Below, piece after piece: positions 26,827-57,681 of a stretch of DNA of 64,000 nt. This stretch comes from Flectonema sp. DT1601 (lineage: Eukaryota). Location: NCBI GenBank assembly GCA_964019425.1, contig OZ025781.1:682001-746000 (forward strand), written 5' to 3'. Position 1 is the stretch's first letter. Each line of letters begins with the position of its first letter. Position numbers and translations under genes: made by a program. Below the pieces are notes generated by a model. It was not told where the DNA came from, did not search any database, and saw nothing but the letters and a program-made list of their open reading frames with translations.

Positions 26827-27010
26827 TTCCCTACCCCATGCGTAATTTCAATGGAGAATTGTAGTAGTGATATCGGGGGTGATGTACTATTTAACTTCGG
26901 TAAATTTACTTAACGAAGCACAACATTAATAACTTCTTAGAGACAAAAATATTATTTAATCACCTATTGCAGGCATCAACCTCAACTTAATAAATGAACG
27001 GGTTTGCTAA

Positions 27011-32368: not shown

Positions 32369-32658
32369 TGTGAAATCTATTACAATTAATGAAGACTTGG
32401 TTGTGGATTTACTTATTAATTTATTAGAGGATTCAGACATTCTAGTTTTTAGAGAAGAGCAAGACAGGTCATGTTATTTTATAGGAAATTACAACTACAG
32501 AATATGTTGCACTATTCAGGAATCGAAGCTGCTTTTCAGTTTTTCCTTATTACTTTACGATTGTTGCCGCCGTTTTGGAACACTTCATCAATATTAATAA
32601 ACCTTTTCGTCTCTCAGTAGATTACTAAAAAAAAGGAAAACAAAAAACAACAACAACG

Positions 32659-35600
32659 ATGCAAGTTTTTGTGACGTGTCCGGATTTGGGATTCCCTGCG
32701 GTGTCAGTCACGGTTGGTGCTGATTCTGTTGTGAGCGACGTGTTGATGGAAGCGGCTGGCGAGTGGGATGTCGATGCGGAGGAAGTTGTACTGTTGTTCG
32801 CTGGTGATGTCCTTTGTGAAAGTGAGCGGCTGGCAGATCATGGAGTGGGTGGAGACAGCGAGTTGGAAATGCGGAAGAAGCTGATTCGGATCTTCGGTAA
32901 AAACTGGTTTGTTGATGATAGAAAAAGGGAGATGCTGCTTCTTTGGATTAGAGATCACAATACGGAGGATTTATATCTGGACACTCTCACATTCTTGGAG
33001 GATGGTTGCCTCACTGTTGACAAAAGATTGCTTCCTTCAGATGCCAAACGGATTTCCTTCCGCCATTCAAACTCCAACAGCACGGTCATCTCACAAGTTA
33101 CTTCTATTGAAGATTTCTTTTTATCTAATTGTTCACAAATCACTTCTGTTGACCTTTCAGGTCTTAGTAGTGTCACCAGTATTGGATATCGTTTTTTGTC
33201 TGATTGTTCAGAAATCACTTCTCTTGACCTTTCAGGTCTTAGTAGTGTCACTAGTATTAAAGATTATTTTTTGTCTAGTTGTTCAGAAATCACTTCTCTT
33301 GACCTTTCAGGTCTCAGTAGTGTCACCAGTATTGGAAATCATTTTTTGTCTAGTTGTTCAAAAATCACTTCTCTTGACCTTTCAGGTCTTATTAGTGTCA
33401 CCAGTATTGGAAATTGTTTTTTGTCTTGGTGTTCAGAAATCACTTCTGTTAACCTTTCAGGTCTTAGTAGTGTCATCAATATTGGAAGTAATTTTTTGTC
33501 TTATTGTCAAAAAATCACTTCTCTTGACCTTTCAGGTCTTAGTAGTGTCACCAGAATTGGAGATTGTTTTTTGTCTTGGTGTTCACAAATAACTTCTGTT
33601 GACCTTTCAGGTCTTAGTAGTGTCACCAGTATTGGATATCGTTTTTTGTCTGATTGTTCAGAAATCACTTCTCTTGACCTTTCAGGTCTTAGTAGTGTCA
33701 CTAGTATTAAAGATTATTTTTTGTCTAGTTGTTCAGAAATCACTTCTCTTGACCTTTCAGGTCTCAGTAGTGTCACCAGTATTGGAAATCATTTTTTGTC
33801 TAGTTGTTCAAAAATCACTTCTCTTGACCTTTCAGGTCTTATTAGTGTCACCAGTATTGGAAATTGTTTTTTGTCTTGGTGTTCAGAAATCACTTCTGTT
33901 AACCTTTCAGGTCTTAGTAGTGTCATCAATATTGGAAGTAATTTTTTGTCTTATTGTCAAAAAATCACTTCTCTTGACCTTTCAGGTCTTAGTAGTGTCA
34001 CCAGAATTGGAGATTGTTTTTTGTCTTGGTGTTCACAAATAACTTCTGTTGACCTTTCAGGTCTTAGTAGTGTCACCAGTATTGGATATCGTTTTTTCTC
34101 TGAGTGTTCAGAAATCACTTCTCTTGACCTTTCAGGTCTTAGTAGTGTCACCAGTATTAGAAATCATTTTTTGTCTGATTGTTCAGAAATCACTTCTCTT
34201 GAACTTTCAGGTCTTAGTAGTGTCACTAGTATTGAAGGTTGTTTTTTGTCTAGTTGTTCAGAAATCACTTCTCTTGACCTTTCAGGTCTTAGTAGTGTCA
34301 CCAGTATTGGAAATTGTTTTTTGTCTAGTTGTTCAGAAATCACTTCTCTTGACCTTTCAGGTCTTAGTAGTGTCACCAGTATTGGAAATTGTTTTTTGTC
34401 TAGTTGTTCAGAAATCACTTCTCTTGACCTTTCAGGTCTTAGTAGTGTCATCAGTATTGGAAATCTTTTTTTGTCTAGTTGTTCAAAAATCACTTCTCTT
34501 GACCTTTCAGGTCTTAGTAGTGTCATCAGTATTGGAAATCTTTTTTTGTCTAGTTGTTCAGAAATCACTTCTCTTGACCTTTCAGGTCTTAGTAGTGTCA
34601 CCAGTATTGGAGATTGTTTTTTGTCTGAGTGTTCAGAAATCACTTCTCTCGACCTTTCAGGTCTTAGTAGTGTCACCAGTATTGGAGATTGTTTTTTGTC
34701 TGAGTGTTCAGAAATCACTTCTGTTAACCTTTCAGGTCTTAGTAGTGTCATCAATATTGGAAGTAATTTTTTGTCTTATTGTCAAAAAATCACTTCTCTT
34801 GACCTTTCAGGTCTTAGTAGTGTCACCAGAATTGGAGATTGTTTTTTGTCTTGGTGTTCACAAATAACTTCTGTTGACCTTTCAGGTCTTAGTAGTGTCA
34901 CCAGTATTGGATATCGTTTTTTGTCTGATTGTTCAGAAATCACTTCTCTTGACCTTTCAGGTCTTAGTAGTGTCACTAGTATTAAAGATTATTTTTTGTC
35001 TAGTTGTTCAGAAATCACTTCTCTTGACCTTTCAGGTCTCAGTAGTGTCACCAGTATTGGAAATCATTTTTTGTCTAGTTGTTCAAAAATCACTTCTCTT
35101 GACCTTTCAGGTCTTATTAGTGTCACCAGTATTGGAAATTGTTTTTTGTCTTGGTGTTCAGAAATCACTTCTGTTAACCTTTCAGGTCTTAGTAGTGTCA
35201 TCAATATTGGAAGTAATTTTTTGTCTTATTGTCAAAAAATCACTTCTCTTGACCTTTCAGGTCTTAGTAGTGTCACCAGAATTGGAGATTGTTTTTTGTC
35301 TTGGTGTTCACAAATAACTTCTGTTGACCTTTCAGGTCTTAGTAGTGTCACCAGTATTGGATATCGTTTTTTCTCTGAGTGTTCAGAAATCACTTCTCTT
35401 GACCTTTCAGGTCTTAGTAGTGTCACCAGTATTAGAAATCATTTTTTGTCTGATTGTTCAGAAATCACTTCTCTTGAACTTTCAGGTCTTAGTAGTGTCA
35501 CTAGTATTGAAGGTTGTTTTTTGTCTAGTTGTTCAGAAATCACTTCTCTTGACCTTTCAGGTCTTAGTAGTGTCACCAGTATTGGAAATTGTTTTTTGTC

Positions 35601-36063
35601 TAGTTGTTCAGAAATCACTTCTCTTGACCTTTCAGGTCTTAGTAGTGTCATCAGTATTGGAAATCTTTTTTTGTCTAGTTGTTCAAAAATCACTTCTCTT
35701 GACCTTTCAGGTCTTAGTAGTGTCATCAGTATTGGAAATCTTTTTTTGTCTAGTTGTTCAGAAATCACTTCTCTTGACCTTTCAGGTCTTAGTAGTGTCA
35801 CCAGTATTGGAGATTGTTTTTTGTCTGAGTGTTCAGAAATCACTTCTCTCGACCTTTCAGGTCTTAGTAGTGTCACCAGTATTGGAGATTGTTTTTTGTC
35901 TGAGTGTTCAGAAATCACTTCTGTTGACCTTTCAGGTCTTAGTGATGTTGAAGAAATTGGTGTGGCCTTCTTCGATAATTGCAGTGCCCTGAAATCTGTT
36001 CAGCTGCCTGAAAATAATGGAGCTCTCTTTGAACCGTCTGTGAAAGCTGCGATTAATCATTAA
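32659..36063 (+). CDS. UBL-LRR protein copy 1: ubiquitin-like domain + 38 x 25-aa BspA/TpLRR-type repeats
   Basis: MQVFV..LLFAGDVL..RLADHGVGGDSELEM aligns by eye with ubiquitin; ITSLDLSGLSSVTSIGxxFLSxCSx units with exact 75-bp period from 33151 to 35926; C-cap ending AAINH. Confidence 0.92.
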   Translation: MQVFVTCPDLGFPAVSVTVGADSVVSDVLMEAAGEWDVDAEEVVLLFAGDVLCESERLADHGVGGDSELEMRKKLIRIFGKNWFVDDRKREMLLLWIRDHNTEDLYLDTLTFLEDGCLTVDKRLLPSDAKRISFRHSNSNSTVISQVTSIEDFFLSNCSQITSVDLSGLSSVTSIGYRFLSDCSEITSLDLSGLSSVTSIKDYFLSSCSEITSLDLSGLSSVTSIGNHFLSSCSKITSLDLSGLISVTSIGNCFLSWCSEITSVNLSGLSSVINIGSNFLSYCQKITSLDLSGLSSVTRIGDCFLSWCSQITSVDLSGLSSVTSIGYRFLSDCSEITSLDLSGLSSVTSIKDYFLSSCSEITSLDLSGLSSVTSIGNHFLSSCSKITSLDLSGLISVTSIGNCFLSWCSEITSVNLSGLSSVINIGSNFLSYCQKITSLDLSGLSSVTRIGDCFLSWCSQITSVDLSGLSSVTSIGYRFFSECSEITSLDLSGLSSVTSIRNHFLSDCSEITSLELSGLSSVTSIEGCFLSSCSEITSLDLSGLSSVTSIGNCFLSSCSEITSLDLSGLSSVTSIGNCFLSSCSEITSLDLSGLSSVISIGNLFLSSCSKITSLDLSGLSSVISIGNLFLSSCSEITSLDLSGLSSVTSIGDCFLSECSEITSLDLSGLSSVTSIGDCFLSECSEITSVNLSGLSSVINIGSNFLSYCQKITSLDLSGLSSVTRIGDCFLSWCSQITSVDLSGLSSVTSIGYRFLSDCSEITSLDLSGLSSVTSIKDYFLSSCSEITSLDLSGLSSVTSIGNHFLSSCSKITSLDLSGLISVTSIGNCFLSWCSEITSVNLSGLSSVINIGSNFLSYCQKITSLDLSGLSSVTRIGDCFLSWCSQITSVDLSGLSSVTSIGYRFFSECSEITSLDLSGLSSVTSIRNHFLSDCSEITSLELSGLSSVTSIEGCFLSSCSEITSLDLSGLSSVTSIGNCFLSSCSEITSLDLSGLSSVISIGNLFLSSCSKITSLDLSGLSSVISIGNLFLSSCSEITSLDLSGLSSVTSIGDCFLSECSEITSLDLSGLSSVTSIGDCFLSECSEITSVDLSGLSDVEEIGVAFFDNCSALKSVQLPENNGALFEPSVKAAINH

Positions 36064-37933: not shown

Positions 37934-40220
37934 ATGCAAGTTTTTGTGACGTGTCCGGATTTAGGATTCCCTGCGGTGTCAGTCACGGTTGGTGCTGATT
38001 CTGTTGTGAGCGACGTGTTGATGGAAGCGGCTGGCGAGTGGGATGTCGATGCGGAGGAAGTTGTACTGTTGTTCGCTGGTGATGTCCTTTGTGAAAGTGA
38101 GCGGCTGGCAGATCATGGAGTGGGTGGAGACAGCGAGTTGGAAATTCGGAAGAAGCTGATTCGGATCTTCGGTAAAAACTGGTTTGTTGATGATAGAAAA
38201 AGGGAGATGCTGCTTCTTTGGATTAGAGATCACAATACGGAGGATTTATATCTGGACACTCCCACATTCTTGGAGGATGGTTGCCTCACTATTGACAAAA
38301 GATTGCTTCCTTCAGATGCCAAACGGATTTCCTTCCGCCATTCAAACTCCAACAGCACGGTCATCTCACAAGTTACTTCTATTGAAGATTTCTTTTTATC
38401 TGAGTGTTCAGAAATCACTTCTGTTGACCTTTCAGGTCTTAGTAGTATCACCAGTATTGGAGATGATTTTTTGTCTTATTGTTCAAAAATCACTTCTGTT
38501 GACCTTTCAGGTCTTAGTAGTGTCACCAGTATTGGAAATCATTTTTTATTTCGTTGTTCAGAAATCACTTCTCTTGACCTTTCAGGTCTTAGTAGTGTCA
38601 CCAGTATTGGAAATCATTTTTTATTTCGTTGTTCAGAAATCACTTCTGTTGACCTTTCAGGTCTTATTGGTATCACCAGTATTGAAAATTACTTTTTAAA
38701 TAATTGTTTACAAATCACTTCTGTTGACCTTTCAGGTCTTAGTAGTGTCACCAGTATTGGATATCATTTTTTGTCTGAGTGTTCAGAAATCACTTCTCTT
38801 GACCTTTCAGGTCTTAGTAGTGTCACCAGTATTGGAGATTATTTTTTGTCTAGTTGTTCAGAAATCACTTCTCTTGACCTTTCAGGTCTTAGTAGTGTCA
38901 CTAGTATTAAAGATTATTTTTTGTCTAGTTGTTCAGAAATCACTTCTCTTGACCTTTCAGGTCTTAGTAGTGTCATCAGTATTGGAAATCTTTTTTTGTC
39001 TAGTTGTTCAAAAATCACTTCTCTTGACCTTTCAGGTCTTATTAGTGTCACCAGTATTGGAAATTGTTTTTTGTCTTGGTGTTCAGAAATCACTTCTGTT
39101 AACCTTTCAGGTCTTAGTAGTGTCATCAATATTGGAAGTAATTTTTTGTCTTATTGTCAAAAAATCACTTCTCTTGACCTTTCAGGTCTTAGTAGTGTCA
39201 CCAGAATTGGAGATTGTTTTTTGTCTTGGTGTTCACAAATAACTTCTGTTGACCTTTCAGGTCTTAGTAGTGTCACCAGTATTGGATATCGTTTTTTCTC
39301 TGAGTGTTCAGAAATCACTTCTCTTGACCTTTCAGGTCTTAGTAGTGTCACCAGTATTAGAAATCATTTTTTGTCTGATTGTTCAGAAATCACTTCTCTT
39401 GAACTTTCAGGTCTTAGTAGTGTCACTAGTATTGAAGGTTGTTTTTTGTCTAGTTGTTCAGAAATCACTTCTCTTGACCTTTCAGGTCTTAGTAGTGTCA
39501 TCAGTATTGGAAATTGTTTTTTGTCTTGGTGTTCACAAATAACTTCTGTTGACCTTTCAGGTCTTAGTAGTGTCACCAGTATTGGATATCGTTTTTTCTC
39601 TGAGTGTTCAGAAATCACTTCTCTTGACCTTTCAGGTCTTAGTAGTGTCACCAGTATTAGAAATCATTTTTTATTTCGTTGTTCAGAAATCACTTCTCTT
39701 GACCTTTCAGGTCTTAGTAGTGTCACCAGTATTAAAAGTTCTTTTTTGTCTTATTGTTCAGAAATCACTTCTCTTGACCTTTCAGGTCTTAGTAGTGTCA
39801 CCAGTATTAAAAGTTCTTTTTTGTCTTATTGTTCAGAAATCACTTCTCTTGACCTTTCAGGTCTTAGTAGTGTCACCAGTATTGGATATCAATTTTTGTC
39901 TAATTGTTCAGAAATCACTTCTGTTGACCTTTCAGGTCTTAGTAGTGTCACTAGTATTGGAAATGATTTTTTATTTCGTTGTTCAGAAATCACTTCTCTT
40001 GACCTTTCAGGTCTTAGTAGTGTCACCAGTATTAAAAGTTCTTTTTTGTCTTATTGTTCAGAAATCACTTCTCTTGACCTTTCAGGTCTTAGTAGTGTCA
40101 CCAGTATTGGATATCAATTTTTGTCTAATTGTTCAGAAATCACTTCTGTTGACCTTTCAGGTCTTAGTAGTGTCACCAGTATTGGAGATTGTTTTTTGTC
40201 TTATTGTTCAGAAATCACTT
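37934..40220 (+). CDS. UBL-LRR copy 2, 5' part (24 repeats), interrupted by and fused in frame to retrotransposon ORF1
   Basis: Same UBL and LRR units; repeats stop at gaaatcactt (40220) while the frame stays open to 43243. Confidence 0.88.
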
Positions 40221-40288
40221 GGGATCACGACACCTGCCTCCTCGCGGCGGTCCCGGACGACTTCGATAGGGGTCGACAAAACAGTGTC
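40221..40288 (+). ncRNA. HDV-like self-cleaving ribozyme (predicted)
   Basis: P1 GGGAUC/GGUCCC, P2 GACAC(C)U/AGUGUC, P3 GCC/GGC with L3 UCCUCGC, GG for P1.1, P4 CGACUUC-GAUA-GGGGUCG, J4/2 ACAAAAC; starts at the first base of the element. Confidence 0.8.
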
Positions 40289-40576
40289 AAACACAAGAGA
40301 TGCCAACAACATCAAAACCATCAAAACCAGCTACAACATCCAGAGCATACAAACCCTGGCTTGTCAAATAAAGAACGGAATAAACTAGCCCATGCCTTGA
40401 ATGGCAATGGTGGACCAGGAAAGGACAGCAGAGACCGACGCCCGCGAGACGATACTCGCGACAGGGACGAAAACCGTCCAAACAAGGAGGAACGTCGCAT
40501 AGCGAAGCTCGAGAAAGAGAAACTCGACTCGCTAGACGAGATAGAGGAAGAGAAGCAACGACTGGGGCAGCAGAGA

Positions 40577-43243
40577 ATGGCCATGGAACAGCACCACCAC
40601 CAGAAGGAAACCAACCTTCAAGGACAAGAAAAACAGTTGGAACAGCAACGCCAACACCAACAACAAGAACTGCAAAGTCAGTACCACCAACAACAGCAGC
40701 AACTGCAAAGCCATCATCAGCTGAAGGAAACGGAAAGTTTCCAGAAGGAGCAAAACCTACAGGCTCAACTCAAGGAGCGACACCAGCACCAACAGAAGGA
40801 ATTGGAGAAGCAATACCGCCAACAACAACAGCAACTGGAAAGCCAACAGCAGAAGAAGGACGCCGAGTCTGAACAGCAAACACATCTGACTCGGTTACAA
40901 CTACAGAAGGAAAAGGAATCCTTCCAGACAGAGAAGGAACGGCTCCACCTCCAGCTGGATCAGCAGTTGAAGAACGAGAAGGAGCACCTCCACCAACAAC
41001 TCCAACAGAAGGAAGACGAGGTTCGTAAAGAAAAGTTAGCAGAGAGAATAGAACTCCAACAACTACGAGATGAACTAACTCAACAAGAACAGAACATCCA
41101 ACGACGTGAGGAAGAGGTGAACCGAGGACAGCACCAACTACACCAACAACAACAACAACTAGAGCAGCAGCAACAGCAATCGCAACATCAGCAACTGGAA
41201 CTACAACAACAACGGCAACAACAGCAACAGCAACAACAGCATCAACAACTGGAACTACAACAACAACAACAACAACAGCACCAACAACAGCATCAACAAC
41301 TGGAACTGGAACAACAACAACTACAACAGCAACAGCAACTGCAACAACATCGACAACCGCAACAACAACCGCAACAGCAACCCGTACACTACATGCAACA
41401 TCAACCGTATGCAACGTACGACACCTACGCCCAGCAGCAGCAGTCTTCCCACTACGAAGGGCTACAACAGGAACTGAAGCGCGAAAGAGAGGAGAAGAGC
41501 GAACTACGCGAGATGCTCCGAACTCTCCAACAACAACTGGACGGATTGAGAGAAGAACTCAAGGCCCAACATGCTGAGGCGAAGAGGCAGCAGGAAACGG
41601 CGGGACGAGAAGCGAGAGAGATGCAAGAACGTTTCTTGCTAGAACTCGAAGCGGAACGGGTCCAGATCAGAGGGCTCAACTCGCTGAGAGAAGAGGAAGA
41701 GGAACTTCAGATGGACACCACCCCTGATCAGGAAGCAAACACGGAAGTGAAGCAAACGCCACCGGTGAAGCTGCCCCAAGACGGTATGAGGGAGCTGGAC
41801 GCCTCACGCAAGAAGCTGATGAAAGAAATCAATGAAGGGCAGGTAGCCGGACGATCGGCCATCCAAGAGCAGATGGTCCGAGAGGCCGGGAGACTGGCGC
41901 AGACTCAGAAGAGCTGGGAGAACGCAGCACGCAAGGAGCGATCCAGGGTGGATAACCTCTCGCTGGCACCGGAATACTGGCCAGAGGGAATGGCGATCAC
42001 GAAGGAGCAGTACGACGCCGGTGCAAAGGGAGTACACCTCACCACCAGAGAGGAGGCAAGGAAGAGGATGTCGGGAACACCTCCGGGAGCCTGGGAAACG
42101 TTATCCCTGGTAACCCTGGAACCACCATCAAGCACGGCCCAAAAAGTACAAGTGGTACTGAAGGAGACGACGAGCGACGGCGAGAAGAGAATTCTCAAGC
42201 AGCTCTGGATGACAACACTGGGAAGAGTGGTTGTACCATCCGGAACAGACGTCGTGCGGACGGAAAGCACGAGGGAGATGGTTGTCCGAGTGGACAAAAA
42301 ATGGTCCGGAGAGAAGAGATGGTCGGAAGTGAAGCGCTCCCCGTTCAGAGCAACGGAGGAATTGAAGAAGATGCCGGGGTACGTCGATACGTACAACCCG
42401 CGGATCGGAGACCAGAGCGTGACCGTGATGCTCAGGGTGAAGGTAGCCGAAGTGAAGAACTTCCTCCGAGAATCGGGGAAGGACGGCGTCTTCACCAAGG
42501 AAAAGGATCCGAGAGAGGAACGAGCAGTGAAGGCGGCGGTCATTTGGCTACCGAAGGACGAGACGCTCGGAATCGCTCGGGACAAGGCTGTAGAAGTCGA
42601 TGGAGGGCTGGGACTCGTGGTAAACGAACACGGACTCGGGCTTCGAGTGACCAGCTGGCAGGAAACGGCGGCGAGGGAGAAACTGCACCTGCCGGCTAAG
42701 CTACCGGAAACAAAGATCACGGGGATACCGATCGGCACAACCACCGACGAAGCGATCAAGTGGCTGATCACGAAGGAAGGCTGGGAAGTGAGGAAGACGA
42801 AGGAAGGCGTACGGAACGGCATGCGATGGATGGTCGTCCGCGGTCCGGTGAGAACGCAGGAAACCATCACAGTGGATGGCGTCCTGTGCATGGTGGAGGC
42901 TGGGAAACAGAAGGAGGAAGTCGACCCGAAACGGAAGGAGACCAAACGCCCGAATGCGACACCGACGAAACCAGAGAAAAGGCGTGACCCGACGGAGGGA
43001 ACGGGAGGAAAGTGGTACACTCGATTGGAGTTCATCGAGTTTCATGGGAAGAAGAAGGGACAACGCCTATGGTTAGAAGCCAGCAACCCAACACCAACTA
43101 CGACGGCACCTACGAAGGCAGCGACCGCAACGACAACAGCGAAAAAGGAGCCCAAGTCGACAAAAAAGAAGGAGAACAGCTCAGTGGACGAGAGATTGGA
43201 CCGACTGGAACGTCTACTGATGGCGTTCATGGAACGGAATTGA
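40577..43243 (+). CDS. Retrotransposon ORF1 (Gln/Glu-rich coiled coil plus basic C-terminal half); true start uncertain
   Basis: Frame is open from the element's 5' end; first in-frame ATG at 40577; long Q/E-rich helical region; TGA at 43241-43243. Confidence 0.8.
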   Translation: MAMEQHHHQKETNLQGQEKQLEQQRQHQQQELQSQYHQQQQQLQSHHQLKETESFQKEQNLQAQLKERHQHQQKELEKQYRQQQQQLESQQQKKDAESEQQTHLTRLQLQKEKESFQTEKERLHLQLDQQLKNEKEHLHQQLQQKEDEVRKEKLAERIELQQLRDELTQQEQNIQRREEEVNRGQHQLHQQQQQLEQQQQQSQHQQLELQQQRQQQQQQQQHQQLELQQQQQQQHQQQHQQLELEQQQLQQQQQLQQHRQPQQQPQQQPVHYMQHQPYATYDTYAQQQQSSHYEGLQQELKREREEKSELREMLRTLQQQLDGLREELKAQHAEAKRQQETAGREAREMQERFLLELEAERVQIRGLNSLREEEEELQMDTTPDQEANTEVKQTPPVKLPQDGMRELDASRKKLMKEINEGQVAGRSAIQEQMVREAGRLAQTQKSWENAARKERSRVDNLSLAPEYWPEGMAITKEQYDAGAKGVHLTTREEARKRMSGTPPGAWETLSLVTLEPPSSTAQKVQVVLKETTSDGEKRILKQLWMTTLGRVVVPSGTDVVRTESTREMVVRVDKKWSGEKRWSEVKRSPFRATEELKKMPGYVDTYNPRIGDQSVTVMLRVKVAEVKNFLRESGKDGVFTKEKDPREERAVKAAVIWLPKDETLGIARDKAVEVDGGLGLVVNEHGLGLRVTSWQETAAREKLHLPAKLPETKITGIPIGTTTDEAIKWLITKEGWEVRKTKEGVRNGMRWMVVRGPVRTQETITVDGVLCMVEAGKQKEEVDPKRKETKRPNATPTKPEKRRDPTEGTGGKWYTRLEFIEFHGKKKGQRLWLEASNPTPTTTAPTKAATATTTAKKEPKSTKKKENSSVDERLDRLERLLMAFMERN

Positions 43244-43285
43244 CCGGCGGAGGACGGAAGGAACTGGGCGGAGACACGGAGACGT

Positions 43286-43327
43286 CTCCTGCTACAAGCT
43301 GGCGACGTTGAGAGGAACCCCGGACCG
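43286..43327 (+). other. 2A-like (StopGo) ribosomal skipping peptide LLLQAGDVERNPG/P
   Basis: Translation from 43244 gives PAEDGRNWAETRRRLLLQAGDVERNPGPRPRIDGLTVGTINV, matching D(V/I)ExNPGP, in frame with both ORFs. Confidence 0.9.
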
Positions 43328-47980: not shown

Positions 47981-48054
47981 GTTGGCCGAACCAGTGCCTC
48001 GTCATCTCACCGTGCTAGCAAGCCTGAATGACAGCACTCAAAATGGTACATATA

Positions 48055-48817
48055 TTGGTGTTCACAAATAACTTCTGTTGACCTTTCAGGTCTTAGTAGT
48101 GTCACCAGTATTGGATATCGTTTTTTCTCTGAGTGTTCAGAAATCACTTCTCTTGACCTTTCAGGTCTTAGTAGTGTCACCAGTATTAGAAATCATTTTT
48201 TGTCTGATTGTTCAGAAATCACTTCTCTTGAACTTTCAGGTCTTAGTAGTGTCACTAGTATTGAAGGTTGTTTTTTGTCTAGTTGTTCAGAAATCACTTC
48301 TCTTGACCTTTCAGGTCTTAGTAGTGTCACCAGTATTGGAAATTGTTTTTTGTCTAGTTGTTCAGAAATCACTTCTCTTGACCTTTCAGGTCTTAGTAGT
48401 GTCATCAGTATTGGAAATCTTTTTTTGTCTAGTTGTTCAAAAATCACTTCTCTTGACCTTTCAGGTCTTAGTAGTGTCATCAGTATTGGAAATCTTTTTT
48501 TGTCTAGTTGTTCAGAAATCACTTCTCTTGACCTTTCAGGTCTTAGTAGTGTCACCAGTATTGGAGATTGTTTTTTGTCTGAGTGTTCAGAAATCACTTC
48601 TCTCGACCTTTCAGGTCTTAGTAGTGTCACCAGTATTGGAGATTGTTTTTTGTCTGAGTGTTCAGAAATCACTTCTGTTGACCTTTCAGGTCTTAGTGAT
48701 GTTGAAGAAATTGGTGTGGCCTTCTTCGATAATTGCAGTGCCCTGAAATCTGTTCAGCTGCCTGAAAATAATGGAGCTCTCTTTGAACCGTCTGTGAAAG
48801 CTGCGATTAATCATTAA
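48055..48817 (+). pseudogene. Orphaned 3' part of a UBL-LRR gene (9 repeats + C-cap) downstream of the retrotransposon
   Basis: Matches 35301-36063 of copy 1 (both 763 bp); has no start codon of its own. Confidence 0.88.
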
Positions 48818-50687: not shown

Positions 50688-53642
50688 ATGCAAGTTTTTG
50701 TGACGTGTCCGGATTTAGGATTCCCTGCGGTGTCAGTCACGGTTGGTGCTGATTCTGTTGTGAGCGACGTGTTGATGGAAGCGGCTGGCGAGTGGGATGT
50801 CGATGCGGAGGAAGTTGTACTGTTGTTCGCTGGTGATGTCCTTTGTGAAAGTGAGCGGCTGGCAGATCATGGAGTGGGTGGAGACAGCGAGTTGGAAATT
50901 CGGAAGAAGCTGATTCGGATCTTCGGTAAAAACTGGTTTGTTGATGATAGAAAAAGGGAGATGCTGCTTCTTTGGATTAGAGATCACAATACGGAGGATT
51001 TATATCTGGACACTCCCACATTCTTGGAGGATGGTTGCCTCACTATTGACAAAAGATTGCTTCCTTCAGATGCCAAACGGATTTCCTTCCGCCATTCAAA
51101 CTCCAACAGCACGGTCATCTCACAAGTTACTTCTATTGAAGATTTCTTTTTATCTGAGTGTTCAGAAATCACTTCTGTTGACCTTTCAGGTCTTAGTAGT
51201 ATCACCAGTATTGGAGATGATTTTTTGTCTTATTGTTCAAAAATCACTTCTGTTGACCTTTCAGGTCTTAGTAGTGTCACCAGTATTGGAAATCATTTTT
51301 TATTTCGTTGTTCAGAAATCACTTCTCTTGACCTTTCAGGTCTTAGTAGTGTCACCAGTATTGGAAATCATTTTTTATTTCGTTGTTCAGAAATCACTTC
51401 TGTTGACCTTTCAGGTCTTATTGGTATCACCAGTATTGAAAATTACTTTTTAAATAATTGTTTACAAATCACTTCTGTTGACCTTTCAGGTCTTAGTAGT
51501 GTCACCAGTATTGGATATCATTTTTTGTCTGAGTGTTCAGAAATCACTTCTCTTGACCTTTCAGGTCTTAGTAGTGTCACCAGTATTGGAGATTATTTTT
51601 TGTCTAGTTGTTCAGAAATCACTTCTCTTGACCTTTCAGGTCTTAGTAGTGTCACTAGTATTAAAGATTATTTTTTGTCTAGTTGTTCAGAAATCACTTC
51701 TCTTGACCTTTCAGGTCTTAGTAGTGTCATCAGTATTGGAAATCTTTTTTTGTCTAGTTGTTCAAAAATCACTTCTCTTGACCTTTCAGGTCTTATTAGT
51801 GTCACCAGTATTGGAAATTGTTTTTTGTCTTGGTGTTCAGAAATCACTTCTGTTAACCTTTCAGGTCTTAGTAGTGTCATCAATATTGGAAGTAATTTTT
51901 TGTCTTATTGTCAAAAAATCACTTCTCTTGACCTTTCAGGTCTTAGTAGTGTCACCAGAATTGGAGATTGTTTTTTGTCTTGGTGTTCACAAATAACTTC
52001 TGTTGACCTTTCAGGTCTTAGTAGTGTCACCAGTATTGGATATCGTTTTTTCTCTGAGTGTTCAGAAATCACTTCTCTTGACCTTTCAGGTCTTAGTAGT
52101 GTCACCAGTATTAGAAATCATTTTTTGTCTGATTGTTCAGAAATCACTTCTCTTGAACTTTCAGGTCTTAGTAGTGTCACTAGTATTGAAGGTTGTTTTT
52201 TGTCTAGTTGTTCAGAAATCACTTCTCTTGACCTTTCAGGTCTTAGTAGTGTCATCAGTATTGGAAATTGTTTTTTGTCTTGGTGTTCACAAATAACTTC
52301 TGTTGACCTTTCAGGTCTTAGTAGTGTCACCAGTATTGGATATCGTTTTTTCTCTGAGTGTTCAGAAATCACTTCTCTTGACCTTTCAGGTCTTAGTAGT
52401 GTCACCAGTATTAGAAATCATTTTTTGTCTGATTGTTCAGAAATCACTTCTCTTGAACTTTCAGGTCTTAGTAGTGTCACTAGTATTGAAGGTTGTTTTT
52501 TGTCTAGTTGTTCAGAAATCACTTCTCTTGACCTTTCAGGTCTTAGTAGTGTCATCAGTATTGGAAATTGTTTTTTGTCTTGGTGTTCACAAATAACTTC
52601 TGTTGACCTTTCAGGTCTTAGTAGTGTCACCAGTATTGGATATCGTTTTTTCTCTGAGTGTTCAGAAATCACTTCTCTTGACCTTTCAGGTCTTAGTAGT
52701 GTCACCAGTATTAGAAATCATTTTTTGTCTGATTGTTCAGAAATCACTTCTCTTGAACTTTCAGGTCTTAGTAGTGTCACTAGTATTGAAGGTTGTTTTT
52801 TGTCTAGTTGTTCAGAAATCACTTCTCTTGACCTTTCAGGTCTTAGTAGTGTCATCAGTATTGGAAATTGTTTTTTGTCTAGTTGTTCAGAAATCACTGC
52901 TCTTGACCTTTCAGGTCTTAGTAGTGTCATCAGTATTGGAAATCTTTTTTTGTCTTGTTGTTCAAAAATCACTTCTCTTGACCTTTCAGGTCTTAGTAGT
53001 GTCACCAGTATTGGAAATTGTTTTTTGTCTAGTTGTTCAGAAATCACTGCTCTTGACCTTTCAGGTCTTAGTAGTGTCATCAGTATTGGAGATGATTTTT
53101 TGTCTTGTTGTTCAAAAATCACTTCTCTTGACCTTTCAGGTCTTAGTAGTGTCATCAGTATTGGAAATCTTTTTTTGTCTTGTTGTTCAAAAATCACTTC
53201 TCTTGACCTTTCAGGTCTTAGTAGTGTCACCAGTATTGGAAATTGTTTTTTATTTAGTTGTTCAGAAATCACTTCTCTTGACCTTTCAGGTCTTAGTAGT
53301 GTCACCAGTATTGGAAATCATTTTTTATTTCGTTGTTCAGAAATGACTTCTCTCGACCTTTCAGGTCTTAGTAGTGTCACCAGTATTGGAGATTGTTTTT
53401 TGTCTGAGTGTTCAGAAATCACTTCTCTCGACCTTTCAGGTCTTAGTAGTGTCACCAGTATTGGAGATTGTTTTTTGTCTGAGTGTTCAGAAATCACTTC
53501 TGTTGACCTTTCAGGTCTTAGTGATGTTGAAGAAATTGGTGTGGCCTTCTTCGATAATTGCAGTGCCCTGAAATCTGTTCAGCTGCCTGAAAATAATGGA
53601 GCTCTCTTTGAACCGTCTGTGAAAGCTGCGATTAATCATTAA
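50688..53642 (+). CDS. UBL-LRR protein copy 3 (32 repeats)
   Basis: Intact 984-aa ORF with the same architecture as copy 1. Confidence 0.92.
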   Translation: MQVFVTCPDLGFPAVSVTVGADSVVSDVLMEAAGEWDVDAEEVVLLFAGDVLCESERLADHGVGGDSELEIRKKLIRIFGKNWFVDDRKREMLLLWIRDHNTEDLYLDTPTFLEDGCLTIDKRLLPSDAKRISFRHSNSNSTVISQVTSIEDFFLSECSEITSVDLSGLSSITSIGDDFLSYCSKITSVDLSGLSSVTSIGNHFLFRCSEITSLDLSGLSSVTSIGNHFLFRCSEITSVDLSGLIGITSIENYFLNNCLQITSVDLSGLSSVTSIGYHFLSECSEITSLDLSGLSSVTSIGDYFLSSCSEITSLDLSGLSSVTSIKDYFLSSCSEITSLDLSGLSSVISIGNLFLSSCSKITSLDLSGLISVTSIGNCFLSWCSEITSVNLSGLSSVINIGSNFLSYCQKITSLDLSGLSSVTRIGDCFLSWCSQITSVDLSGLSSVTSIGYRFFSECSEITSLDLSGLSSVTSIRNHFLSDCSEITSLELSGLSSVTSIEGCFLSSCSEITSLDLSGLSSVISIGNCFLSWCSQITSVDLSGLSSVTSIGYRFFSECSEITSLDLSGLSSVTSIRNHFLSDCSEITSLELSGLSSVTSIEGCFLSSCSEITSLDLSGLSSVISIGNCFLSWCSQITSVDLSGLSSVTSIGYRFFSECSEITSLDLSGLSSVTSIRNHFLSDCSEITSLELSGLSSVTSIEGCFLSSCSEITSLDLSGLSSVISIGNCFLSSCSEITALDLSGLSSVISIGNLFLSCCSKITSLDLSGLSSVTSIGNCFLSSCSEITALDLSGLSSVISIGDDFLSCCSKITSLDLSGLSSVISIGNLFLSCCSKITSLDLSGLSSVTSIGNCFLFSCSEITSLDLSGLSSVTSIGNHFLFRCSEMTSLDLSGLSSVTSIGDCFLSECSEITSLDLSGLSSVTSIGDCFLSECSEITSVDLSGLSDVEEIGVAFFDNCSALKSVQLPENNGALFEPSVKAAINH

Positions 53643-55401
53643 ATGTAAAGTGTTGAATTGATTCTTGGTTGTCATGTATTTTATATTTTTAATGTTTTGT
53701 TGTCAATAAAACGTGGTATCAACTTTTACCAAGTGACGAGACCTCGGAATCTATGATTCTCCTCGCGTCTCATCACTTCTCTTCCGATGATATTATTCTG
53801 CCAAGTTATCTTTTTTTCCCTGAGCGTTTGCTAGTAATACTGTTTGCGATTATACAAAAATCTACGTCTGTTTTCTGAGTAATCTTTTTTTTTTGTTCCG
53901 ACGAAGTCGGAAAAGAAACTATTCAGATTGAAAGTCGATATTTCTTATGGTCATGATTAATTTTCACCATGCGACAGGATTTTGTCCCCCCGAATTGCCA
54001 GATTCGACAACGTCTTGTGGTCAGTAAGACGAAAAATAGTTTTTTTTTCATTTTTATATTTTCTTTTTTGTTTTTTCTAAACGTAATTATTCTTTGATTA
54101 ACAATTACAAATATTTTTCAGTCAAGTACTTGATATTAATTTTGTTTTTAATACCTAAAGTTATTACTGTTTTTACATTGTAAAAGTAGCACCCCATGCG
54201 ACAGGATTTTATCTGTGTTTAACGAAATATAAGGCTGATCTGAATGGTTTTTTTGTACTTATTTTGTTTCACACCCCGTCCTTGGATCTGACAGGTATTT
54301 TTCAGTTGGGTACTTTGATATTAATTTAATTTCAAATTATTTACAAGATATTCGTAAAATGTATCAAGCGAAAGTTATTTTGTAGTGTTCATTCTTTTAT
54401 CAGACTTTCAAGCCTTTCCCCGTTTTCAATAATAAATCTTAATCCCACCCGCCATTCCTCGTAGTGCCGATCCTCCCCAAGGGAAGATCGGCACATCAAT
54501 GTTCATGAAGCAGATACTCTAAGGCAGACGTCTACTCGTCGTCAAGGGTAGACCGCCAAGTTGACGACCCTATATGTATATGATTACCGAGTGAATTGTT
54601 TTCTATCCTTCATCATCATCTTTCTTTCATCAGGGGCAAAAAGAATGCAATAGTTGATTACCGAGTACAACAAAGTTTTTATATTTATCACTCTAATTTA
54701 CTACACTCAGTAGATGTAAATTCATGTAGCGTTGGTGCATCAAAGTAGTTGAGAATTTGAATCGAAACTGCCTCAAAGATTCTGTTTTTAAGTTGTCAAA
54801 GTTTCACCCCAACCTTCGGATTTAATAAAAGAGCTGTTTTATTATTTTTAATATAAGCTAACTCATTTGTTTGAAAAAAATGATTTCCAATTAATGTCTT
54901 TGCTGAAAAAACCCGTCGATGCCACCACCCCAACATTATTTGTTAGGATTATACAGCCCCCTCATGTTTTCTAACTGAATTCTGGATAACACTACCATAA
55001 TTTATGTAAAGTGAGTACTCCGCTATTAGTGTTACTACGAACTAGCAATATGGGTAGGCCATCAAATCCTGATGGATAGATTAGGGGGGTGTGTGTCCTG
55101 TCGGTTCCGAATGTGAAATCTATTACAATTAATGAAGACTTGGTTGTGGATTTACTTATTAATTTATTAGAGGATTCAGACATTCTAGTTTTCAGAGAGG
55201 AGCAAGACAGGTCATGTTATTTTATAGGAAATTACAACTACAGAATATGTTGCACTATTCAGGAATCGAAGCTGCTTTTCAGTTTTTCCTTATTACTTTA
55301 CGATTGTTGCCGCCGTTTTGGAACACTTCATCAATATTAATAAACCTTTTCGTCTCTCAGTAGATTACTAAAAAAAAGGAAAACAAAAAACAACAACAAC
55401 A

Positions 55402-57681
55402 ATGCAAGTTTTTGTGACGTGTCCGGATTTGGGATTCCCTGCGGTGTCAGTCACGGTTGGTGCTGATTCTGTTGTGAGCGACGTGTTGACGGAAGCGGCT
55501 GGCGAGTGGGATGTCGATGCGGAGGAAGTTGTACTGTTGTTCGCTGGTGATGTCCTTTGTGAAAGTGAGCGGCTGGCAGATCATGGAGTGGGTGGAGACA
55601 GCGAGTTGGAAATGCGGAAGAAGCTGATTCGGATCTTCGGTAAAAACTGGTTTGTTGATGATAGAAAAAGGGAGATGCTGCTTCTTTGGATTAGAGATCA
55701 CAATACGGAGGATTTATATCTGGACACTCCCACATTCTTGGAGGATGGTTGCCTCACTGTTGACAAAAGATTGCTTCCTTCAGATGCCAAACGGATTTCC
55801 TTCCGCCATTCAAACTCCAACAGCACGGTCATCTCACAAGTTACTTCTATTGAAGATTTCTTTTTATCTAATTGTTCACAAATCACTTCTCTTGACCTTT
55901 CAGGTCTTAGTAGTATCACCAGTATTGGAAATAGTTTTTTGTCTGAGTGTTCACAAATCACTTCTGTTGACCTTTCAGGTCTTAGTAGTGTCACCAGTAT
56001 TGGAAATAGTTTTTTGTCTGAGTGTTCAGAAATCACTTCTCTTGACCTTTCAGGTCTTAGTAGTGTCATCAATATTGGAAGTAATTTTTTGTCTTATTGT
56101 TCAGAAATCACTTCTCTTGACCTTTCAGGTCTCAGTAGTGTCACCAGTATTGGAAAGCATTTTTTGTCTAGTTGTTCAGAAATCACTTCTGTTGACCTTT
56201 CAGGTCTTATTAGTGTCACCAGTATTGGAAATCGTTTTTTGTCTTATTGTTCAGAAATCACTTCTCTTGACCTTTCAGGTCTCAGTAGTGTCGCCAGTAT
56301 TGGAAATAGTTTTTTGTCTGAGTGTTCAGAAATCACTTCTCTTAACCTTTCAGGTCTTAGTAGTGTCAGTAGTATTGGAAATCATTTTTTGTATATTTGT
56401 TCCAAAATCACTTCTGTTGACCTTTCAGGTCTTAGAAGTGTCACCAGTATTGGAAATTCTTTTTTGTCTTGGTGTTCAGAAATCACTTCTGTTGACCTTT
56501 CAGGTATTAGTAGTGTCATCAATATTGGAAGTAATTTTTTGTCTTATTGTCAAGAAATCACTTCTCTTGACCTTTCAGGTCTTAGTAGTGTCACCAGAAT
56601 TGGAGATTGTTTTTTGTCTGAGTGTTCACAAATAACTTCTGTTGACCTTTCAGGTCTTAGTAGTGTCACCAGTATTGGAGATGATTTTTTGTCTTGTTGT
56701 TCAAAAATCACTTCTCTTGACCTTTCGGGTCTTAGTAGTATCATCAGTATTGGAAATTGTTTTTTGTGTTATTGTTCAAAAATCACTTCTGTTGACCTTT
56801 CAGGTCTTAGTAGTGTCACCAGTATTGGAGATTATTTTTTGTCTTATTGTTCAAAAATCACTTCTCTTGACCTTTCAGGTCTTAGTAGTGTCATCAGTAT
56901 TGGAGATGATTTTTTGTCTTGTTGTTCAAAAATCACTTCTCTTGACCTTTCAGGTCTTAGTAGTGTCACCAGTATTGGAAATCATTTTTTATTTCGTTGT
57001 TCAGAAATGACTTCTCTTGACCTTTCAGGTCTTATTGGTATCACCAGTATTGAAAATTACTTTTTAAATAATTGTTCACAAATCACTTCTCTTGACCTTT
57101 CAAGTCTTAGTAGTGTCACCAGTATTGGATATCGTTTTTTGTCTGAGTGTTCAGAAATCACTTCTCTTGACCTTTCAGGTCTTAGTAGTGTCATCAGTAT
57201 TGGAAATTGTTTTTTGTCTAGTTGTTCAAAAATCACTTCTCTTGACCTTTCAGGTCTTTGTAGTGTCACCAGTATTGACGATTATTTTTTGTCTTGTTGT
57301 TCAAAAATCACTTCTCTTGACCTTTCAGGTCTTAGTAGTGTCACCAGTATTGGATATCGTTTTTTGTCTGAGTGTTCAGAAATCACTTCTCTTGACCTTT
57401 CAGGTCTTAGTAGTGTCACCAGTATTGGAGATTGTTTTTTGTCTGAGTGTTCAGAAATCACTTCTCTTGACCTTTCAGGTCTTAGTAGTGTCACCAGAAT
57501 TGGAGATTGTTTTTTGTCTGAGTGTTCACAAATAACTTCTGTTGACCTTTCAGGTCTTAGTGATGTTGAAAAAATTGGTGTGGCCTTCTTCGATAATTGC
57601 AGTGCCCTGAAATCTGTTCAGCTGCCTGAAAATAATGGAGCTCTCTTTGAACCGTCTGTGAAAGCTGCGATTAATCATTAA
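55402..57681 (+). CDS. UBL-LRR protein copy 4 (23 repeats)
   Basis: Intact 759-aa ORF with the same architecture and a different order of repeat variants. Confidence 0.92.
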   Translation: MQVFVTCPDLGFPAVSVTVGADSVVSDVLTEAAGEWDVDAEEVVLLFAGDVLCESERLADHGVGGDSELEMRKKLIRIFGKNWFVDDRKREMLLLWIRDHNTEDLYLDTPTFLEDGCLTVDKRLLPSDAKRISFRHSNSNSTVISQVTSIEDFFLSNCSQITSLDLSGLSSITSIGNSFLSECSQITSVDLSGLSSVTSIGNSFLSECSEITSLDLSGLSSVINIGSNFLSYCSEITSLDLSGLSSVTSIGKHFLSSCSEITSVDLSGLISVTSIGNRFLSYCSEITSLDLSGLSSVASIGNSFLSECSEITSLNLSGLSSVSSIGNHFLYICSKITSVDLSGLRSVTSIGNSFLSWCSEITSVDLSGISSVINIGSNFLSYCQEITSLDLSGLSSVTRIGDCFLSECSQITSVDLSGLSSVTSIGDDFLSCCSKITSLDLSGLSSIISIGNCFLCYCSKITSVDLSGLSSVTSIGDYFLSYCSKITSLDLSGLSSVISIGDDFLSCCSKITSLDLSGLSSVTSIGNHFLFRCSEMTSLDLSGLIGITSIENYFLNNCSQITSLDLSSLSSVTSIGYRFLSECSEITSLDLSGLSSVISIGNCFLSSCSKITSLDLSGLCSVTSIDDYFLSCCSKITSLDLSGLSSVTSIGYRFLSECSEITSLDLSGLSSVTSIGDCFLSECSEITSLDLSGLSSVTRIGDCFLSECSQITSVDLSGLSDVEKIGVAFFDNCSALKSVQLPENNGALFEPSVKAAINH

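Follow-up and report, generated by a model that had tools for sequence, protein, structure and literature searches.

The window, a 64,000-nucleotide stretch of contig OZ025781.1, carries a cluster of five tandem paralogues on the forward strand, of which three are intact, one is split by a retrotransposon and one is truncated. As blastn with spacer 3 as the query shows, the tandemly duplicated segment starts 289 nt upstream of gene 1 (32369..32658), where the window is 99.3% identical to the 3′ ends of the inter-gene spacers. Gene 1 (32659..36063) is intact and encodes 1134 amino acids, arranged as a ubiquitin-like domain (UBL; residues about 1-75), a helical linker with a leucine-rich repeat (LRR) N-cap (about 80-153), 38 units of 25 residues and a C-cap. 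The 5′ part of gene 2 (37934..40220) specifies the UBL, the linker, 24 units and then 28 nt of unit 25 (FLSYCSEIT), where it stops at an insert; its 3′ part (48059..48817) supplies the rest of the interrupted unit (CSQITSVDLSGLSSVTSIGYR), followed by 8 units, the C-cap and the stop codon. Genes 3 (50688..53642; 984 amino acids, 32 units) and 4 (55402..57681; 759 amino acids, 23 units) are intact. The four long genes match Pfam LRR_5 with E values from 1e-72 to 1e-128 (9.9e-128 for gene 1), and each joins a UBL head to 23-38 BspA-type LRRs. Gene 5 (59501..60061; 186 amino acids), which lies beyond the interval treated in an earlier note on this DNA, retains the UBL, the linker and one damaged unit, followed by unrelated sequence at the cluster end.

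The 75-bp arrays delimited by TRF span 33118-35943 (37.7 copies), 38393-40220 (24.4), 48058-48697 (8.5), 51147-53522 (31.7) and 55861-57561 (22.7), in agreement with the repeat numbers of 38, 24+9, 32 and 23 given in the earlier note. That note also described the UBL, linker, C-cap and spacers as nearly invariant, and the alignments bear this out: over the first 459 coding nt the five copies are separated by 0-9 differences, the inter-gene spacers are 99.1-100% identical, and the gene 4 C-cap is unchanged.

The ubiquitin-like head and the wider family

A profile built from 60 family members matches PDB ubiquitin chains over profile positions 9-80. In an AlphaFold model from the 60-member alignment (pLDDT 94.8, pTM 0.83) the head adopts a beta-beta-alpha-beta-beta-beta order, and the best 50 Foldseek matches in PDB are all ubiquitin or UBLs, with single-domain target TM scores of 0.84-0.92. 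The two approaches thus agree on the ubiquitin fold that had been proposed for the N-terminus. This UBL has no GG tail and lacks all seven ubiquitin lysines that were compared (K6, K11, K27, K29, K33, K48 and K63). Two of the three positions of the ubiquitin hydrophobic patch are kept (L10 and L46), with Arg72 in place of V70 by extension of the alignment. Residue 1 already lies in the first strand of the fold and the best Kyte-Doolittle 19-mer scores 1.4, so that, as previously noted, no signal peptide or transmembrane segment is suggested. Many Trichomonas BspA-like proteins likewise have no known signal peptide or transmembrane segment.

The repeats are of the BspA/TpLRR type (Pfam LRR_5, PF13306), a class that the earlier note had not identified. 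The 60-member profile matches the solved LRR_5 proteins 4gt6, 4fs7 and 4h09 and the TpLRR protein 6mlx, and LRR_5 is present in 57 of the 60 aligned members. The weaker PDB matches of the same profile include GALA proteins. A query with the 150-residue N-terminus retrieved 110 proteins at E<=1e-3, 80 of them in a single stretch, and 69 cover the UBL plus linker, mostly in proteins of 300-450 residues. The family is lineage-specific, with many diverged members elsewhere: about 70 diverged clusters in a related genome hold the full architecture including the C-cap, and in P0049, whose N-terminus is 38% identical, a second homogenised array varies at the same IG-xx-FL-xx-C positions. Large BspA-like families are described in Trichomonas and Entamoeba (PMC2843621). 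The present proteins resemble these in repeat class and in forming a large lineage-specific protist family, but their repeat has 25 residues, two of them extra after LDLS, they add the UBL and the conserved linker/N-cap, and their arrays by far exceed those of typical members in length and uniformity.

The retrotransposon splitting gene 2

The insert that splits the array of gene 2 into 24+9 units, which the earlier note had not recognised, is a non-LTR retrotransposon of 7,838 bp (40221..48058), delimited by composition and junction sequences and lying in the sense orientation. Its GC content is 50-56%, compared with about 37% in the surroundings, and it is present as a single copy in the window. 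The element has no poly-A tail and is flanked by a candidate 16-bp target duplication (40205-40220 and 48059-48074, 14/16 identical); its left junction is bridged by a contig of run X1. ORF1 (43243 being its last position, from 40223; forward strand) encodes a Q-rich, coiled-coil-like protein with homologues P0004, P0006 and P0122, and is open in the frame of gene 2 from the junction, with the first Met about 120 codons in. ORF2 (43352..47980) encodes an apurinic-type endonuclease (Exo_endo_phos, E 1.9e-6), a reverse transcriptase (RVT_1, E 1.1e-23; LINE-1 ORF2p structures, E 4e-17) and a Cys/His-rich tail.

The 5′ end of the element contains a candidate HDV-like self-cleaving ribozyme (40221..40291). 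Its full-model match to Rfam RF00094 scores 20.6 bits against a gathering threshold of 50 (E 1.1), and that to RF02682 scores 12.8 bits. In a manual assignment of P1, P1.1, P2, P3 and P4, each of the 20 pairs is a standard one. The predicted cut, between 40220 and 40221, coincides with the host/element junction. In all five copies of the element whose 5′ junction can be seen, the insertion point is the identical nucleotide of the repeat, from which it appears that the retrotransposon targets the LRR repeat itself. 5′ HDV-like ribozymes free site-specific non-LTR elements such as R2 in 28S rDNA (PMC3774820) and L1Tc/ingi (PMC3185411, PMC4035085), and ingi/RIME elements insert in RHS genes (PMC7563717). 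The gene 2 element resembles these in its fixed insertion point within a multicopy target, its sense orientation and a candidate ribozyme cut on the 5′ junction, and ingi/RIME in particular in having a multigene protein family as target and leaving pseudogenes. It differs from them in inserting into a 75-bp coding repeat that belongs to an LRR protein, from R2 in that its endonuclease is apurinic-type rather than restriction-like, and from the 5′ HDV-like ribozyme elements in that the candidate ribozyme falls below the Rfam threshold and its cleavage is only predicted.

Homogenised repeats that vary at three codons

We compiled 121 full units, excluding the one interrupted by the insert and, from all four arrays, the final unit next to the cap, and numbered them in the register F1 L2 S3 x4 C5 ... 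I22 G23 x24 x25. Among them, 56 different sequences occur at the DNA level and 55 at the protein level. Codon 4 takes nine residue types (S, E, Y, N, R, C, W, D, I), codon 24 six (N, D, Y, S, G, K) and codon 25 nine (C, H, R, D, Y, L, N, S, Q); in all three the third base is nearly always T. Core positions F1, C5, T9, L13 and I22 are invariant, and across the 56 distinct units the ITSLDLS strand is nearly so (I 54/56, T 56/56, S 54/56, L/V 40/16, D 52/56, L 56/56, S 56/56). These counts uphold the earlier view that variability is high at the IGxxF pair and the residue before C, and that it lies off the LxxLxL strand.

The repeat DNA is homogenised, and blocks of it have been duplicated and exchanged from gene to gene. 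The first 17 unit types of gene 3 are those of gene 2, in the same DNA and order, and genes 1-3 have blocks of nucleotide-identical units in common. Thus, unit order does differ between genes, as had been claimed, but much of the difference among genes 1-3 reflects block duplication and exchange; the identity of the common units also implies that, over the period since the latest duplications, units have not diversified quickly. In gene 4, all 23 units are private at the DNA level, even though its flanks share 99-100% identity with the gene 3 flanks.

Nonsynonymous change predominates by every comparison applied, a result that refers to repeats of a few genes in one genome and not to alleles. 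Pairwise Nei-Gojobori counts over units give a pN/pS of 2.27. Of the changes on a spanning tree of units, 150 are nonsynonymous and 16 synonymous (omega 2.8; binomial p 7e-6), and codon maximum likelihood on a fixed FastTree topology gives a whole-unit omega of 2.52 (lnL -899.01 versus -905.74 at omega=1; 2dlnL 13.5), both tests assuming a tree, an assumption that recombination between units breaks. The excess is concentrated at the three codons of IG-xx-FLS-x-C, which account for 75 nonsynonymous and 0 synonymous changes on the spanning tree, or 10.3 times the unit-wide silent rate. Gene 4 units differ from their nearest counterparts in genes 1-3 at 4.3% of sites, by 69 nonsynonymous and 6 synonymous changes. 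Outside the repeats of gene 4 there are 4/459 differences in the N-terminus, 0/96 in the C-cap, and 4/500 and 0/500 in the 500-nt flanks. Silent divergence in the array, about 1.5% by arithmetic from this comparison, is near flank level, and silent sites are therefore not unusually constrained. The per-codon nonsynonymous excess suggested previously is thus real by pairwise, spanning-tree, maximum-likelihood and gene 4 comparisons. Long DNA-uniform arrays in which only two or three residues of each repeat vary recall the TAL effectors, which have near-identical repeats with repeat-variable di-residues and a known ligand and code, but whose fold is helical and not an LRR solenoid.

Possible roles of the family

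The three variable positions probably form one exposed face, because they follow the second short strand and flank F-L-S, tolerate polar, charged and aromatic residues, and have an analogue in the FGxxFN/FNIP LRR proteins of giant viruses and Dictyostelium. In those proteins (PMC9525666), each genome has a large repertoire of near-identical repeat arrays in which the xx of G-x-x-F is most variable, and some members carry F-boxes, read by the authors as selecting proteins for degradation. The cluster matches what is described there in its uniform arrays, variable G-x-x-F pair, large repertoire and fused ubiquitin-system module; it differs in having 25-residue LRR_5 repeats rather than the 22-residue FNIP subclass, a UBL rather than an F-box, and a documented third variable position (x before Cys) with a measured nonsynonymous excess. 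Position 24 is largely N, D, S or Y, which are turn-forming, and part of its variation may be structurally neutral.

Our favoured reading, to which we would give slightly less than an even chance, is that the family combines a predicted, non-conjugatable UBL with an LRR array serving as a fast-evolving ligand-binding stripe, the UBL coupling the ligand to the ubiquitin-proteasome machinery. Unequal crossing-over and gene conversion would homogenise the 75-bp framework and rearrange its units, while selection would maintain, and would have driven apart, residues 4, 24 and 25 of every repeat. Lying off the canonical LxxLxL strand and beside the second short strand, these residues would make one long variable surface over 23-38 stacked turns. 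Such a surface might bind ligands, which the UBL might link to degradation by analogy with LRR+UBL cofactor E-like proteins, UBL shuttle factors and F-box-LRR receptors. TBCEL, for example, has been proposed to help direct alpha-tubulin, its bound client, to the proteasome (PMC3789837). TBCE and TBCEL are likewise soluble proteins with LRRs and an integral ubiquitin-like domain, but the domain is C-terminal, the few conserved LRRs are of another class and the genes are single-copy housekeeping genes; no sequence relationship between them and the cluster proteins was found. The absence of the GG tail, of the lysines and of V70 in the UBL weighs against a link to degradation, and the results support neither the proteasome routing nor the intracellular defence role suggested in the earlier note.

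Positive selection and a large lineage-specific family would fit offence as well as defence. The proteins could be effectors or manipulators of a parasitic or predatory protist, the LRR stripe tracking host or prey targets and the UBL hijacking the ubiquitin system. In bacteria, LRR effectors that carry F-box or E3 modules act on the target cell's ubiquitin system in this way; the pairing of LRRs with ubiquitin-system modules is a known effector design, and GALA matches the profile weakly. We nonetheless consider this unlikely, since the sequences show neither a signal peptide nor another export signal and residue 1 falls within the UBL fold. Similarly improbable is a purely structural role without a variable ligand, in which unequal crossing-over expands and shuffles the solenoid, the three sites are the least constrained on its surface and the UBL is an N-terminal cap or dimerisation module. 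The conservation of E35 and W36, which are invariant or near-invariant across the family, together with the high pTM, suggests a fixed UBL-linker packing, such that the UBL may be a structural cap that is not free to dock. The identical blocks common to genes 1-3 are consistent with this role, as are 66 units from diverged paralogues, in which codons 4, 24 and 25 are among the most variable and so are 3, 6, 10, 17 and 21. Relaxed constraint, however, would give an omega near 1, not 10 at three codons or 2.5 unit-wide, with silent divergence at flank level.

It is more doubtful still that the family is mainly a multicopy target of the site-specific retrotransposon, its copies decaying under little protein-level selection. 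The single insertion point, the two broken genes among five and the precedent of trypanosome RHS genes (PMC7563717) would suit such a view, but three genes hold open frames of 759-1134 codons through 23-38 repeats, the core positions are invariant, the pattern of change is codon-aware, and the full architecture persists in the diverged clusters. Least probable is the somatic assembly or mutation of cassettes into many receptors per clone, the variable-receptor likeness drawn in the earlier note: the resemblance to lamprey VLRs (mentioned in PMC9525666) extends to a uniform LRR framework with concentrated variability and gene-specific unit number and order, but the genes are complete in germline sequence, the common blocks are nucleotide-identical and bear no trace of continuing hypermutation or of cassettes being assembled, no flanking cassette library, deaminase, recombinase or signal peptide was seen in the window, and the variable residues lie off the concave strand.

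Full-text literature searches returned no description of a UBL fused to BspA-type LRRs. With three residues per repeat changing about ten times faster than silent sites, these are likely to be fast-evolving binding proteins, possibly tied to degradation.

A tandem cluster encoding ubiquitin-like heads and leucine-rich repeats

The window is AT-rich by composition (GC content of ∼37%) and has a eukaryotic gene content, comprising a LINE and genes for a HECT ligase, a mitoribosomal mL43-like protein and a DUF155/RMND1 protein. Atlas matches to the DUF155 protein are eukaryotic in a generic way, and the mL43-like protein shows weak matches to Polytomella and kinetoplastid chains. Between 32369 and ∼60040 lies a tandem series of a ∼4.5–5.5-kb segment, each copy of which contains one gene and a spacer of ∼1.8 kb. 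Genes 1 to 4 (32659–36063, 37934–48817, 50688–53642 and 55402–57681) carry a predicted ubiquitin-like (UBL) head followed by an array of 75-bp leucine-rich repeat (LRR) units. Gene 5 (59501–60061) is truncated, with the UBL, the linker and one damaged unit giving way to unrelated DNA at the 3′ edge of the cluster. The repeat counts of 38, 24+9, 32 and 23 in the earlier note agree with the arrays found by TRF (37.7, 24.4+8.5, 31.7 and 22.7 copies). Its description of the N-termini and spacers as nearly invariant also holds, with 0–9 nucleotide differences among the gene copies in the first 459 coding nucleotides and spacer identities of 99.1–100%.

The genes of the window form a co-directional, apparently intronless cluster, as in organisms with polycistronic transcription. 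No Rfam family reaches its gathering score anywhere in the window, and no tRNAs were found there. Several other features were noted nearby. A ∼113-nt segment is present in three of the four spacers (36754–36866, 49508–49620 and 58372–58484) and is missing from spacer 3 (53643–55401). The HECT-domain ubiquitin ligase gene lies at 8848–11670, ∼21 kb upstream of the cluster. Satellite DNA that repeats every ∼264–269 bp occupies 20064–26827 (25.3 copies) and 31440–32237 (3.0 copies), its copies showing 94–95% matches and a strong C-over-G skew, and both blocks border a 1277-residue ORF (27011–30844) that has no Pfam match. Outside the insert in gene 2, all ORFs of at least 200 amino acids in 1–64000 are on the + strand, without interruption.

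Pfam assigns the arrays of genes 1–4 to LRR_5 (PF13306) with 242–420 bits against a gathering threshold of 27.7 (E 1e-72 to 1e-128), and 57 of 60 aligned relatives match the same model. A family profile built from the 60 aligned members also matches solved LRR_5 structures (4gt6, E 4.7e-25; 4fs7, 7.4e-24; 4h09, 4.6e-14) and TpLRR 6mlx (E 3e-9). As judged by these similarities, the repeats are BspA/TpLRR-type leucine-rich repeats, with the 25-residue consensus F-L-S-x-C-S-E-I-T-S-L-D-L-S-G-L-S-S-V-T-S-I-G-x-x. The BspA family name implies a cell-surface location. In the UBL–LRR protein, no 19-mer exceeds 1.43 on the Kyte–Doolittle scale, and residue 1 already lies within the UBL fold.

The N-terminal 150 residues fall below the Pfam gathering thresholds for ubiquitin (18.0 bits vs 25.4, E 2.4e-3) and Rad60-SLD (19.9 bits vs 23.8, E 6.4e-4). 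Profile positions 9–80, however, match ubiquitin and UBL chains of the PDB in single stretches (2mlb_A, a mono-ubiquitin variant, E 2.1e-4; ubiquilin-2, 1.5e-3), and match polyubiquitins through a summed score (E 1.4e-24). When supplied with the family alignment, AlphaFold returns a model with a pLDDT of 94.8 and a pTM of 0.83, with residues 1–75 at 94–97; in the single-sequence model made without the alignment, the N-terminus has a pLDDT <50 and is not modelled. The order of elements in the modelled head is that of a beta-grasp, and ubiquitin or UBLs make up all of the best 50 PDB matches in Foldseek, the single-domain matches giving target TM scores of 0.84–0.92 and an rmsd of 1.1–2.1 Å to ubiquitin. 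The profile matches and the model thus favor the ubiquitin fold that had been proposed for the N-terminus.

An alignment with ubiquitin, extended by hand at both ends, places Arg-Ile at the positions of G75–G76, such that the Gly-Gly is absent. Because the chain moreover runs on into a helical linker and then the LRR N-cap, the UBL is an integral domain and not a modifier. K48 is replaced by Asp; of the hydrophobic patch, L8 and I44 are retained (L10 and L46 in the UBL) and V70 is Arg, so that the patch is kept in part. Proteasome-shuttling UBL proteins (Rad23/Dsk2 type, TBCEL) are defined by a UBL for proteasome receptors and a second module for the client. Pfam detects neither UBA nor CAP-Gly domains in the UBL–LRR proteins.

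In a library of 1.8 billion proteins, the N-terminal 150 residues find 110 proteins, 80 of them as single-stretch matches and 30 as polyubiquitin-like multi-stretch matches. The UBL part and the linker are covered in 69 of the 80, which are mostly 300–450 amino acids long with LRR_5 repeats behind. Another homogenised LRR array, in the distant member P0049, varies at the IG-xx-FL-xx-C positions that are also variable in the window. It is followed by ∼650 unrelated residues, and in another protein, P0020, the UBL of this family is joined to a different C-terminal region. An Atlas search with the N-terminus yielded leads only, below 0.8 (clusters with ubiquitin+DUF285 and with FNIP+LRR_5), and no relative of the N-terminus was found in the JGI metagenomes. 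Full-text searches of openly accessible papers gave no description of a UBL–BspA fusion.

A nonsynonymous excess at three codons of the repeat unit

For the analysis of unit variation we took 121 complete units, with the cap-adjacent final unit excluded from all four arrays, along with the one that the insert interrupts. Counted once each, they amount to 56 different DNA sequences and 55 different proteins. Across these 56 units, codons 4, 24 and 25 sample nine, six and nine residues, respectively, with position 24 being mostly N, D, S or Y, while F1, C5, T9, L13 and I22 are invariant. In the three variable codons, the third base is a T with few exceptions.

Four estimates point in the same direction. 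Pairwise Nei–Gojobori counts give a pN/pS of 2.27, the three codons having pN values of 0.61, 0.31 and 0.52 where the pooled pS is 0.055. A minimum spanning tree has 150 nonsynonymous against 16 synonymous changes, for an omega of 2.8 (p 7e-6). Of these, 75 and 0, respectively, fall in the three variable codons, which change 10.3 times as fast as the silent sites of the unit; the remaining 22 codons have an omega of 1.6. Fitting a GY codon model to a fixed FastTree topology gives an omega of 2.52, with lnL −899.01 vs −905.74 at omega = 1 (2dlnL 13.5; p ∼2e-4 from a chi-square table with 1 d.f., 3.7e-4 with 2 d.f.), although no tree is strictly valid for these units because they recombine.

Gene 4 serves as an internal control. 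Its 23 units are all private at the DNA level. Compared with the nearest units of genes 1–3, they differ at 4.3% of sites, with 69 nonsynonymous and 6 synonymous differences. By our own arithmetic this corresponds to a silent divergence of ∼1.5% in the array, close to that of the flanks: gene 4 and gene 3 differ at 4/459 nucleotides in the N-terminus, 0/96 in the C-cap, and 4/500 and 0/500 in the 500-nt flanks. The excess is therefore not an artefact of frozen silent sites. The four estimates agree that nonsynonymous changes are in excess, in a comparison made among the repeats of one genome and not among alleles, and the excess is codon-specific. The per-codon count thus bears out the nonsynonymous excess that the earlier note expected at these codons.

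The arrays also differ in repeat number and order, as had been noticed, and the differences involve whole blocks. Long blocks of unit types are common to genes 1–3, with identical nucleotides and unchanged order; genes 2 and 3 agree throughout their first 17 units, and block duplications are present inside the array of gene 1. Blocks shared between genes and duplicated within one indicate that number and order change by unequal crossing-over or conversion. No sign of a fast mutator is seen.

Both AlphaFold models place a three-residue strand at S10-L11-D12, the canonical concave strand, and a short second strand at S21-I22 in each repeat; a third strand at L2-S3 appears in the single-sequence model only. 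Residues 24 and 25 come after the second strand and residue 4 follows F-L-S. All three are 7–13 residues away from the concave strand, and they tolerate charged, polar and large aromatic side chains. The proposal that variation avoids the LxxLxL strand is upheld, in that ITSLDLS is nearly fixed among units. In diverged paralogues (66 ungapped units from 259 matches in 68 proteins), many other surface positions vary too, whereas the units of the window vary strongly only at positions 4, 24 and 25. Because of this restriction, and because the array of P0049 varies at the same positions, we infer from the models that residues 4, 24 and 25 form an exposed stripe on the non-concave side.

A VLR-type reading of the variable receptor repertoire in the earlier note is not supported. 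VLR-type receptors combine variability on the concave LxxLxL strand with somatic cassette assembly. In contrast, the UBL–LRR genes of this one assembly keep that strand nearly constant and are complete in the germline, with identical blocks shared among them.

A retrotransposon that targets the repeat

The array of gene 2 is split into 24+9 units by a non-LTR retrotransposon at 40221–48058, inserted in the sense (+) orientation, with a length of 7,838 bp and a GC content of 50–56%. ORF1 is in frame with gene 2 and open from the junction, and ORF2 encodes an apurinic-type endonuclease (Exo_endo_phos) and a reverse transcriptase (RVT_1) as identified by Pfam. The element lacks a poly-A tail, and its flanks, TGTTCAGAAATCACTT and TGTTCACAAATAACTT, are identical at 14 of 16 positions. 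The left junction is spanned by one contig of sequencing run X1; the contigs of runs X1–X3, mostly short pieces, contain no usable polymorphism and no empty-site allele. A 2A-like peptide in ORF1 was considered and dropped, as the NPG-L motif is not kept in other copies.

The protein collection contains P0004, P0006 and P0122 as ORF1 homologues; P0122 belongs to the P0006 cluster. All four ORF1-bearing copies with a visible 5′ junction, the window copy included, are inserted after C-x-x-I-T of an LRR unit, in four unit contexts; three cluster members that begin inside ORF1 and one fragment were left out of this count. P0009 and a loose end of X1 at 48355 show a fifth junction, identically placed in the unit but with a different 5′ sequence, bringing the agreement to five of five copies. 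The P0009 junction protein reads ...CPQIT|WVTKLGQ..., and this insert may represent another element subfamily on the same target. The three database ORF1 copies are 92–96% identical to one another, whereas identity between two of their host genes is 68%, which argues that the insertions are independent and younger than the genes. Judged from these junctions, the element is a site-specific non-LTR retrotransposon.

Over its first 71 nt, the element matches the full Rfam model of the HDV ribozyme (RF00094) with 20.6 bits against a gathering threshold of 50, an E of 1.1 for 501 nt searched against all 4227 families, and a second HDV-type Rfam model matches the same span. RF00094 places the cleavage point between 40220 and 40221, coinciding with the independently determined junction. 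HDV-like ribozymes are recognized by a nested double pseudoknot of P1–P4 plus P1.1, a catalytic C and cleavage 5′ of G1. In the single DNA copy at hand, 20 of 20 hand-assigned pairs in P1, P1.1, P2, P3 and P4 are standard and L3 is UCCUCGC, a post hoc check, given that this same sequence served to derive the structure. Minimum free energy folding, a model that does not cover pseudoknots, rates the 5′ end of the element no better than shuffles (z −0.29), and the JGI metagenomes contain no exact match to the ribozyme core. We consider this 5′ end a candidate HDV-like ribozyme with a predicted cut on the host junction. In this respect the element would resemble R2 in rDNA and L1Tc, which use a 5′ HDV-like ribozyme strategy (PMC3774820, PMC3185411 and PMC4035085).

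The RHS family of trypanosomes is likewise a multigene protein family that serves as a retrotransposon target (PMC7563717). The present element adds the coding repeat of a protein family to the multicopy targets of site-specific retrotransposons.

Possible functions of the variable stripe

The variable stripe presumably binds something. By analogy, the UBL might link a stripe-bound partner to degradation, as in UBL shuttle factors and F-box–LRR receptors. TBCEL, which combines an LRR with a UBL, provides a further analogue (PMC3789837). FGxxFN repeats, for which there is a crystal structure, have the same habit as the UBL–LRR units, with almost identical repeats in which the xx pair is most variable; FGxxFN proteins with F-box fusions are read by the authors as choosing proteins for degradation (PMC9525666). 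The role of the variable LRR proteins may be defence, offence or some other recognition.

A far more elaborate scheme, built by analogy, strikes us as a long shot. Each repeat would contribute a three-residue specificity code in the style of the variable di-residues of TAL effectors, and 23–38 repeats would read a long ligand, either periodic or linear, on a non-concave stripe of 110–180 Å, with the UBL handing the target straight to the proteasome. Such a germline degradation receptor, reprogrammable by recombination, would act in protist innate immunity, and the retrotransposon, specialised on the repeat, would be freed from the host transcript by its ribozyme.

Because the 75/0 signal is unusually clean in homogenised DNA, the family seems well suited as a natural model of how repeat proteins keep their specificity residues distinct under concerted evolution. 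Should the proposed reading be right, these genes would constitute a soluble LRR family with specificity located off the concave sheet and refreshed through ordinary recombination plus positive selection. A UBL head in place of an F-box would then make direct, ligase-free delivery to degradation a testable idea for a protist that has been little studied.
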